From a virus (Duplodnaviria > Heunggongvirae > Uroviricota > Caudoviricetes): DNA of 6,095 bases. The notes under the pieces were generated by a model, which worked only from the letters and a program-made list of their open reading frames with translations, had not been told where the DNA came from and did no database searches. The stretch is taken from IMG/VR virus record IMGVR_UViG_2534682255_000031, one strand, 5' to 3'. The translations under genes and the position numbers were made by a program. Below are positions 2,300-2,473 of the stretch, piece after piece; the first letter of the stretch is position 1, and every line of letters begins with the position of its first letter.

Positions 2300-2473
2300 A
2301 TGAAAGATCAAAAAGCAACCAAGCCACAGGTTAAGTTCGACACAATGAAAGCATTCGCAGGTATGGGTGCTGCTGTTGAAGTTCTGATGAAGGCTGCTCC
2401 TAATGCGTTCACTCACGCTACTGTCTCTGGTAAAGAGCAGCAGGGTAAGCTTCGTCGTCGCAAAGCAGCATGA
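2300..2473 (+). CDS. Small lysine-rich protein, 57 aa (MKDQKATKPQVKFDTMKAFAGMGAAVEVLMKAAPNAFTHATVSGKEQQGKLRRRKAA); not in the supplied ORF track
   Basis: GGGAG at 2288-2292 lies 7 nt upstream of ATG 2300; TGA at 2471-2473 is followed 20 nt later by a strong terminator; basic C-terminal tail RRRKAA. Confidence 0.6.
   Translation: MKDQKATKPQVKFDTMKAFAGMGAAVEVLMKAAPNAFTHATVSGKEQQGKLRRRKAA

Follow-up and report, generated by a model that had tools for sequence, protein, structure and literature searches.

The small gene at positions 2300..2473 (+ strand) of a 6,095-nucleotide stretch of Caudoviricetes DNA (IMG/VR record IMGVR_UViG_2534682255_000031; the whole stretch is called here the window) encodes a basic protein of 57 amino acids, p57, and it is the invariable downstream neighbour of a gene encoding an acidic GNAT-fold protein, p178 (1570..2103, + strand), in an association that is systematic and asymmetric. 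Together with the RNA leader that lies between both genes and the terminator that follows the second one, they have been transferred as one block among cargo ("moron" or defence) slots that are unrelated to each other in temperate phages of Enterobacterales and Shewanella. As judged from these sequences, p57 may partner and control p178 within a toxin-antitoxin (TA)-like or anti-phage prophage module, and we give this interpretation a probability of about 45%. It seems rather probable that p57 is a functional partner of p178, and it is possible, but on balance doubtful, that it is a labile antitoxin-like neutraliser.

Since 67 open reading frames (ORFs) of at least 30 amino acids were present in the window, the size of p57 is unremarkable by itself and its significance comes from conservation. 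Homologous loci were drawn from phage records, one-genome-per-species contigs, assemblies and IMG/VR. The ratio of nonsynonymous to synonymous substitutions (dN/dS, Nei-Gojobori) was 0.06–0.34 in every diverged pair and, along the 32-codon ungapped core, 8 columns varied at the first codon position, 11 at the second and 28 at the third. Frame +1 alone among the six frames was stop-free in 14/14 homologues, whose length differences were always of whole codons. The codon-position and dN/dS tests ruled out a chance ORF or a non-coding cause of conservation. The shortness of the ORF and its location next to a bidirectional terminator and a structured RNA could be invoked in favour of p57 not being a gene, its frame being open by chance and its conservation reflecting a DNA or RNA function (the terminator region of the excisionase gene xis, or an antisense RNA). 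However, the strong three-base periodicity of substitutions, the low dN/dS, the whole-codon indels and the exclusive open frame hold across genera, the ORF is also kept in contexts devoid of xis, and the codon tests practically refute this view. It is therefore almost certain that p57 is a protein-coding gene under purifying selection, with its translation deduced from the sequence. The other ORFs overlapping it were discarded: those of the − strand at 2279-2416 and 2308-2412 are unconserved, with stops in frame −1 in 7/14 homologues, and that of the + strand at 2203-2334 is also unconserved, its ATG at 2203 being ATA in several lineages.

The translation of p57 (MKDQKATKPQVKFDTMKAFAGMGAAVEVLMKAAPNAFTHATVSGKEQQGKLRRRKAA) begins at an ATG and contains 9 Lys and 3 Arg, giving an isoelectric point (pI) of 10.5 and a net charge of about +7.6. 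A Shine-Dalgarno sequence, GGGAG, is located at 2289..2293 (+ strand), with a 6-nt spacer to the ATG, and a site of the GAGG/GGAG type, roughly 5–8 nt upstream, is kept in all p57 homologues. An intrinsic terminator at 2492..2517, common to the convergent p57 and xis transcripts, begins 19 nt past the p57 stop codon. Its hairpin (GAAAACCCGCC-TTCA-GGCGGGTTTTT, followed by TCTTT) has 11 pairs, 6 of them GC, a loop of 4 nt and a T-run, with a folding energy of −23.1 kcal/mol (z = −3.0); the T-run is strong on the + strand and the − strand has only 4 U. A GC-rich hairpin with a U-run directly after the gene, as in rho-independent terminators, is thus found at 2492-2517. All homologues carry a terminator hairpin 3′ of p57, of unrelated sequence in the Hafnia, Cronobacter-type, Shewanella and Edwardsiella phages. 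An earlier examination of this DNA by a model that had only the letters and a list of ORFs (the sequence-only reading) had proposed this ORF as a real gene on the basis of its Shine-Dalgarno sequence and terminator hairpin; all three elements are present and the conservation analysis confirmed their interpretation.

The same reading had described the ORF as unannotated, which turned out to be mistaken. The protein is already recorded as WP_000654815.1, a "hypothetical protein" called by PGAP, it is 100% identical to gp24 of phage mEp460 (YP_007112098.1), and it is a member of PHROG 2741, with E = 8.1e-36 and residues 1-57 aligned on profile positions 1-57 of 57. In addition, at least 1000 contigs carry the exact p57 sequence, with labels like "Phage protein", and a 411-nt region of the locus is present in 562 of 5426 complete Escherichia coli genomes. 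All these entries belong to the same family as p57 and have no function assigned, and neither the pairing with a GNAT-fold gene nor the leader RNA nor the C-terminal motif is recorded in them. Therefore the claim of an unannotated ORF adds nothing to annotation, barring exceptions such as phage Eeyore (PP925821.1). At positions 3093-3667 of our extract of this phage (L195), the deposited annotation has four short spurious ORFs in other frames, and the true p57 homologue, of 53 amino acids, with a GAAGAGG Shine-Dalgarno sequence and a terminator, was overlooked by the depositors at L195 3298-3459.

Linkage between both genes was counted by tblastn over 195 loci. A p178 homologue with p57 downstream was present in 170 of them, p57 without p178 in 25, and p178 without p57 in none. 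The 170 paired loci contain 37 distinct intergenic sequences, with gaps of 77–200 nt, and the pair persists at considerable divergence. p178 is 60% identical in Photorhabdus, 46% in an Edwardsiella P2-like prophage, 41.6% in Eeyore (whose p57 partner was recognised by hhalign with a probability of 97.9% and E = 3e-13) and 39% in Shewanella, where the partner reads ...VYGRLGLTLKGLLKAAPKHL...HGRRKAKAA. Within Enterobacteriaceae p57 is the better conserved of the two (88–95% identity vs. 66–72% for p178). The charges of both proteins are opposed in 8/8 diverged pairs, p178 being acidic in every lineage (pI 4.4–5.5) and p57 basic (pI 9.7–10.8). That p178 never occurs without p57, and p57 sometimes without p178, is what would be anticipated were p178 dependent on p57.

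Among the 25 loci with p57 alone, 21 have a SocA/Panacea antitoxin gene and a gene of 139 amino acids occupying the slot between att and xis. This cassette (positions 4973-5961 of both L003, phage Lys8385Vzw, and L004, phage SKA5) replaces p178 and the leader. The Panacea-domain antitoxin gene encodes 190 amino acids, and its 139-amino-acid companion, without any family match, is presumably the corresponding toxin. As the swap junction is situated about 12 nt before the p57 ATG, p57, its Shine-Dalgarno sequence and its terminator are retained. We also considered a relaxed selection on p57 behind this cassette, but the variation among these copies (4 alleles, all intact) was too small for a verdict. 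In the other 4 loci, from Cronobacter-type phages, p57 lies behind a gene of 88 amino acids or a gp49/66 gene, and the C-terminal KAA has been lost. The earlier suggestion that p57 is a partner of the neighbouring GNAT-like ORF is consequently supported in part: its linkage in 170/170 loci fits a partner or antitoxin-like role, and in the 25 loci lacking p178 it is not a satellite of the GNAT-like gene.

The p178 gene, the upstream member of the module, has an alternative ATG at 1567. The AlphaFold2 model of its product (predicted local distance difference test, pLDDT, 86; predicted template modelling score, pTM, 0.85) adopts a GNAT fold, with 163 PDB matches at E ≤ 1e-3 by Foldseek, all of the top matches listed being GNATs. 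Among these matches are complexes of antitoxin peptides with the toxins AtaT, TacT3 and KacT (6gtq, 7ak9 and 5zgn being among the fold hits), and so the larger partner is, according to its predicted model, a GNAT-fold protein. Its sequence contains an invariant Y148...G152-F153, within a YYxSFGF motif, which appears from the alignment to correspond to GNAT motif B. p178 belongs to PHROG 4350, and no Pfam or NCBIfam match was obtained for it or for 27 scanned homologues, p178 itself giving nothing beyond chance hits in these databases, in PADLOC or among PDB sequences. A distant relative (27% identical, 190 amino acids) was detected on the Enterobacter kobei plasmid NZ_CP156932.1 (L196 2492-3328). 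It is followed by a Lys-rich ORF of 57 amino acids with a Shine-Dalgarno sequence and a terminator, which may be an analogous partner; as a p57 homologue this ORF was discarded, for it has no detectable homology (hhalign probability 0.1).

Searches with p57 indicated a small family. When 1.8 billion representatives were searched exhaustively with a profile, only 12 were recovered at E ≤ 1e-3, the real matches having 54–61 amino acids, and no match was obtained in Pfam, NCBIfam, PADLOC or PDB sequence searches, nor in Pfam for any of 23 family members. The AlphaFold2 model, built on a 23-sequence alignment, consists of a single helix (residues 15-32) with disordered tails and no strand, at a mean pLDDT of 71. 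The helix is predicted to be amphipathic, with a conserved hydrophobic stripe formed by F19, M22, V26, L29, A33 and F37, the first four of which are carried by the helix together with a small-residue patch, GMGAA; the helix ends at the invariant P34. The disordered tails are rich in Lys and Arg. The N-terminal one is poorly conserved, and the C-terminal one carries the invariant residues E46, Q48 and G49, followed by [KR]-x-R (motif E-x-Q-G-[KR]-x-R); position K50 is Arg in distant members. The last residues are -AA in 10/12 diverged lineages and -VA in the other two, with variants such as RRRKAA, RKVAA (SRKVAA), QRIAA, KAKAA and EQKAA. The whole protein is hydrophilic (grand average of hydropathy, GRAVY, −0.55; best 19-residue hydropathy 1.0). 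The binding to nucleic acids or ribosomes that the sequence-only reading had suggested from the basic composition found no backing in a recognisable binding domain, either in the one-helix model or in Pfam, NCBIfam and PDB, which leaves charge as its only ground.

The C-terminal end deserves a separate comment. Some of the described ClpX degrons end in LAA or VAA, or in RRKKAI (PMC8138137). Like the ClpXP degrons of ssrA (...LAA), RseA(1-108) (...VAA) and MuA (RRKKAI), p57 has a basic run and an -AA carboxyl terminus (RRRKAA, SRKVAA, QRIAA), and a degron-type pattern, [L/V/I/K]AA-COOH, is conserved in 10/12 lineages on a tail predicted to be disordered. This likeness is one of sequence, and two p57 lineages end in -VA.

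The spacer between both genes (2104-2299) is also conserved in structure. Just past the p178 stop codon there is a promoter-like element, TAGACG-N18-TAGGAT (2107..2136, + strand; TAGACG at 2107-2112 and TAGGAT at 2131-2136). In 17 diverged intergenic sequences TAGAC and TA[GC][GT]AT, 18 nt apart, are invariant while their flanks vary, and TAGAC often contains the p178 stop codon. The element agrees with the sigma-70 consensus at 8/12 positions and was not listed by a promoter consensus scan with a threshold of 9/12; we infer that it may be a weak sigma-70 promoter. It is followed by a structured RNA leader (2148..2288, + strand) with four hairpins: H1 (2148-2152 with 2158-2162), H2 (2209-2215 with 2223-2229), H3 (2233-2240 with 2248-2255) and H4 (2270-2274 with 2284-2288), the last one abutting the Shine-Dalgarno sequence. 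The window sequence folds with a minimum free energy of −59.2 kcal/mol (z = −3.8). In the 17 diverged sequences 88.8% of cells are paired, vs. at most 44% when the partners are slid, and the covariation score was reached by 0/500 shuffles. H3 shows double (compensatory) changes at 4/8 pairs and 16 substitutions in H2 give G-U pairs, mismatched if read from the opposite strand and so compatible only with a + strand RNA. We therefore disfavoured an operator reading of these palindromes, as their variation is G-U-tolerant and compensatory, pointing to RNA structure, and p57 lacks a DNA-binding fold. No Rfam family matched the leader; the only Rfam hits were sub-threshold (rnk_pseudo, RNAI, P9 and sroH, at 2453-2525) and matched the terminator hairpin alone, so that a known RNA family was rejected for both elements. 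From these patterns we interpret the leader as an element that belongs to the p57 mRNA at the RNA level, be it a 5′ untranslated region or an intercistronic processing or stability element, and it could represent an undescribed cis-regulatory or processing element.

The whole unit spans about 1.1 kb in the order GNAT-fold gene, structured RNA leader of about 80–200 nt, Shine-Dalgarno sequence, p57 and terminator, and it occupies different positions depending on the phage. The dusA phages of E. coli and Salmonella have it between att and xis, and those of Enterobacter and Hafnia, like many IMG/VR lambdoids, right after the late antiterminator Q and before the lysis genes. In a P2-like phage it is found between gpA and the portal gene, this gpA-portal (gpA-gpQ) region of P2 being a documented old/tin defence hotspot (PMC9122126). 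Other copies adjoin cas3 or are inserted within myovirus tail genes. For this reason the convergence with xis, to which the earlier examination had given importance, is incidental, and a functional link of p57 to xis or excision was rejected because the pair is found in many contexts without xis. The alternation of p178 with the Panacea antitoxin and 139-amino-acid cassette in the att-xis slot indicates a position for TA or defence cargo. In two Hafnia prophages (L011 3150-4109 and L012 3051-4109) a toxSAS-like gene with a RelA_SpoT domain, of 319–352 amino acids, is directly upstream of the pair; its presence there, between Q and the lysis genes, indicates that cargo or defence genes cluster at this site.

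The unit resembles prophage morons and the cargo of defence hotspots (lambdoid Q-to-lysis region, P2 hotspot) in several respects. It is self-contained, carrying a promoter-like element and a terminator of its own, it occupies the same slots and is exchangeable with the Panacea TA cassette, and its GC content (0.42–0.48) is below that of the phage backbone on one side. It differs from them in having no defence, virulence or fitness phenotype on record. The nearest functional analogue is the GNAT/ribbon-helix-helix (RHH) type II TA family (TacA-TacT, AtaR-AtaT, KacA-KacT and ItaR-ItaT). Like p178-p57, these are two-gene modules of mobile elements in which a GNAT-fold protein of about 160–180 amino acids is paired with a much smaller one. 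In their solved complexes (6gtq, 7ak9, 5zgn) a short, otherwise disordered segment of the antitoxin binds the toxin; protease lability is expected of the small partner, which can be an orphan, whereas the GNAT gene is not found as one. However, the antitoxins have an N-terminal RHH (DUF1778) DNA-binding domain that p57 lacks, and the toxins are recognisable by sequence as GNATs of the Acetyltransf_1/7/10 type, a signature not present in p178. Moreover, the antitoxin gene is immediately upstream of the toxin gene, abutting or overlapping it in one operon, and p57 is downstream of p178 in all 170 loci. As these three tested defining features fail, the p178-p57 unit should not be filed under GNAT/RHH type II TA.

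If p57 and p178 act together, p57 would bind and control p178 as its cognate protein partner. The amphipathic helix of p57, through its hydrophobic stripe and GMGAA patch, would fold onto the acidic p178, and the basic tail with the E-x-Q-G-[KR]-x-R motif could add electrostatic or active-site contacts, in a way that might resemble the C-terminal peptides of the antitoxins of GNAT toxins. The -AA end would make p57 a ClpXP-type substrate and consequently a short-lived neutraliser or regulator, whose loss would release p178. The hairpin-rich leader and the terminator may give p57 its own expression or mRNA stability, independent of p178. The pair would then constitute a TA-like or anti-phage (abortive-infection-type) accessory module of the prophage.

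Several observations weigh against this proposal. p178 may not be a toxin, as suggested by its strong acidity, unlike the tRNA-binding GNAT toxins, and by its best structural matches, which are protein N-terminal acetyltransferases. The RHH/DUF1778 domain of the known antitoxins is absent from p57 by Pfam, the AlphaFold2 model and PDB sequences, and the downstream position of p57, with its gap of 77–200 nt, is contrary to their gene order. The model of p57 is of moderate confidence and comes from a shallow alignment, its interaction with p178 is deduced from gene linkage and charge, and the degron is proposed on likeness to known tails. Neither protein matched any PADLOC-DB 2.0 family at E ≤ 1 (0/5027 models), and no paper on p57 or p178 was found in literature searches covering 8 million papers. 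The strict adjacency could partly reflect the shared ancestry of a small young family, whose 12 representatives are defined at 50% identity. Finally, p57 remains intact behind three unrelated upstream genes, and an autonomous function of p57 fits this fact equally well.

According to this last possibility, p57 would act alone on a target of the host or the phage, its basic tails and amphipathic helix binding, for example, nucleic acid, a membrane surface or the ribosome; p178 would be an independent gene, and p57 would merely share its transcription unit and terminator with the upstream cargo. Its persistence with its own Shine-Dalgarno sequence and terminator behind the Panacea antitoxin and 139-amino-acid genes, the 88-amino-acid gene and the gp49/66 gene, together with a swap junction so close to its ATG, is the behaviour of a separable unit, and both its conservation within Enterobacteriaceae, higher than that of p178, and its strong positive charge are in agreement with such a role. 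However, if both genes were independent, shuffling should sometimes have separated them, and none of the 170 loci with p178 (37 intergenic variants, identities as low as 39%, six or more genomic contexts) lacked p57. The opposite charges have been kept in all pairs as well, and the p178-free Cronobacter-type copies are those that lost the conserved C-terminal -KAA. We regard an autonomous effector as unlikely, although worth serious consideration. Rather unlikely too is that p178 is a normal, non-toxic protein acetyltransferase and p57 either an adaptor tethering it to RNA, DNA or ribosomes or its dedicated Lys-rich substrate. The poor conservation of the p57 N-terminus and the replacement of K50 by Arg in distant members argue against a fixed acetyl-acceptor site, and this explanation does not account for why such an enzyme occupies TA and defence slots.

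The roles of both proteins could also be reversed: a small, basic and toxic p57, resembling those type I toxins whose 5′ leader is long and structured, would be detoxified by p178. A small ORF immediately preceded by a long and highly structured leader, the basic and amphipathic nature of p57 and read-through from xis, which would be antisense to p57 in dusA phages, would be in accordance with this. Nevertheless, the 25 loci with p57 alone would be lethal were p178 its antidote, the hydropathy of p57 given above is not that of a membrane toxin, and there is no sign of an antisense ORF or RNA that is conserved, frame −1 having stops in half of the homologues. This makes a toxic p57 very improbable, and p57 as the partner and regulator of p178 remains the interpretation that we prefer.

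With respect to the genomic setting, the window comes from a decayed lambdoid prophage, inserted in dusA as is the case in E. coli O157:H7 and its relatives, and represents the end nearest the chromosome. In window order the first gene is a DUF2713 (yjbM-like) gene (1-957). Directly 3′ of it a second strong terminator-like hairpin was observed at 995-1024, with 13 pairs and a T-run; a weak AgrB-like Rfam match on the opposite strand reflects this hairpin itself. A displaced 5′ fragment of dusA (1313..1441, + strand) marks the prophage/chromosome junction on the att side. In the corresponding position of a related locus (L001) PGAP names it "tRNA-dihydrouridine synthase, incomplete", and by tblastn it adjoins int in mEp460, SKA5 and Lys8385Vzw. 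Phage mEp460, which is intact, is arranged circularly as int, attP, p178, p57, xis and exo. The xis gene (2521..2829, − strand; PGAP call, 2521-2802) encodes a PrtN-family excisionase (PF11112, E = 4e-23; phrog_1300 "excisionase"), is convergent to p57 and belongs to the prophage backbone, outside the two-gene module.

Beyond xis, the exonuclease, methylase, HD-hydrolase and DUF2303 genes survive as remnants, a deletion joins these to the end of a tail-fibre gene, and prophage decay is heavy at 2839-5440. The 3′-5′ exonuclease gene (2839-3344) is truncated and frame-broken, the DNA methylase gene (3491-3997) is interrupted by a stop, and the DUF2303 gene (4966-5352) is truncated. The C-terminal part of a J-like tail-fibre gene (5439-6095) is fused directly to the DUF2303 remnant near 5370-5440. 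Similarity of the window to most related genomes stops at 5716. A small RNA of E. coli K1, sRNA-17, placed in an mEp460-like prophage in a study in which "hypothetical protein" genes were taken out before the intergenic regions were defined (PMC7719688), was also considered as an identity for this locus. It was rejected because the sequence given in the primer table of that study is missing from the window and maps about 5 kb away in mEp460, at 11458-11478, near gp36 and the repressor region.

What is new here appears to be the architecture of the module, apparently undescribed, since p57 itself was already known as a hypothetical protein. In its widest form, which we consider a speculative and rather improbable extension, positions 1570-2517 would hold an undescribed three-part prophage system formed by an acidic, sequence-orphan GNAT-fold effector, a conserved multi-hairpin leader and a minimal one-helix, degron-tagged neutraliser of 57 amino acids without DNA-binding domain, that is, a new TA or abortive-infection architecture hopping between defence and moron hotspots. 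Some 10% of complete E. coli genomes, O157:H7 among them, contain the unit, as do prophages of Salmonella, Enterobacter, Hafnia, Edwardsiella, Photorhabdus and Shewanella, and in temperate phages of pathogens (E. coli O157:H7, other Shiga toxin-producing E. coli, Salmonella and Enterobacter) it shares its slots with TA and anti-phage systems. If it were a TA or defence module, GNAT-based systems would come to include a new architecture, in which the partner is a minimal protein of one helix, and a function would be assigned to two "hypothetical" families present in roughly one in ten E. coli genomes.

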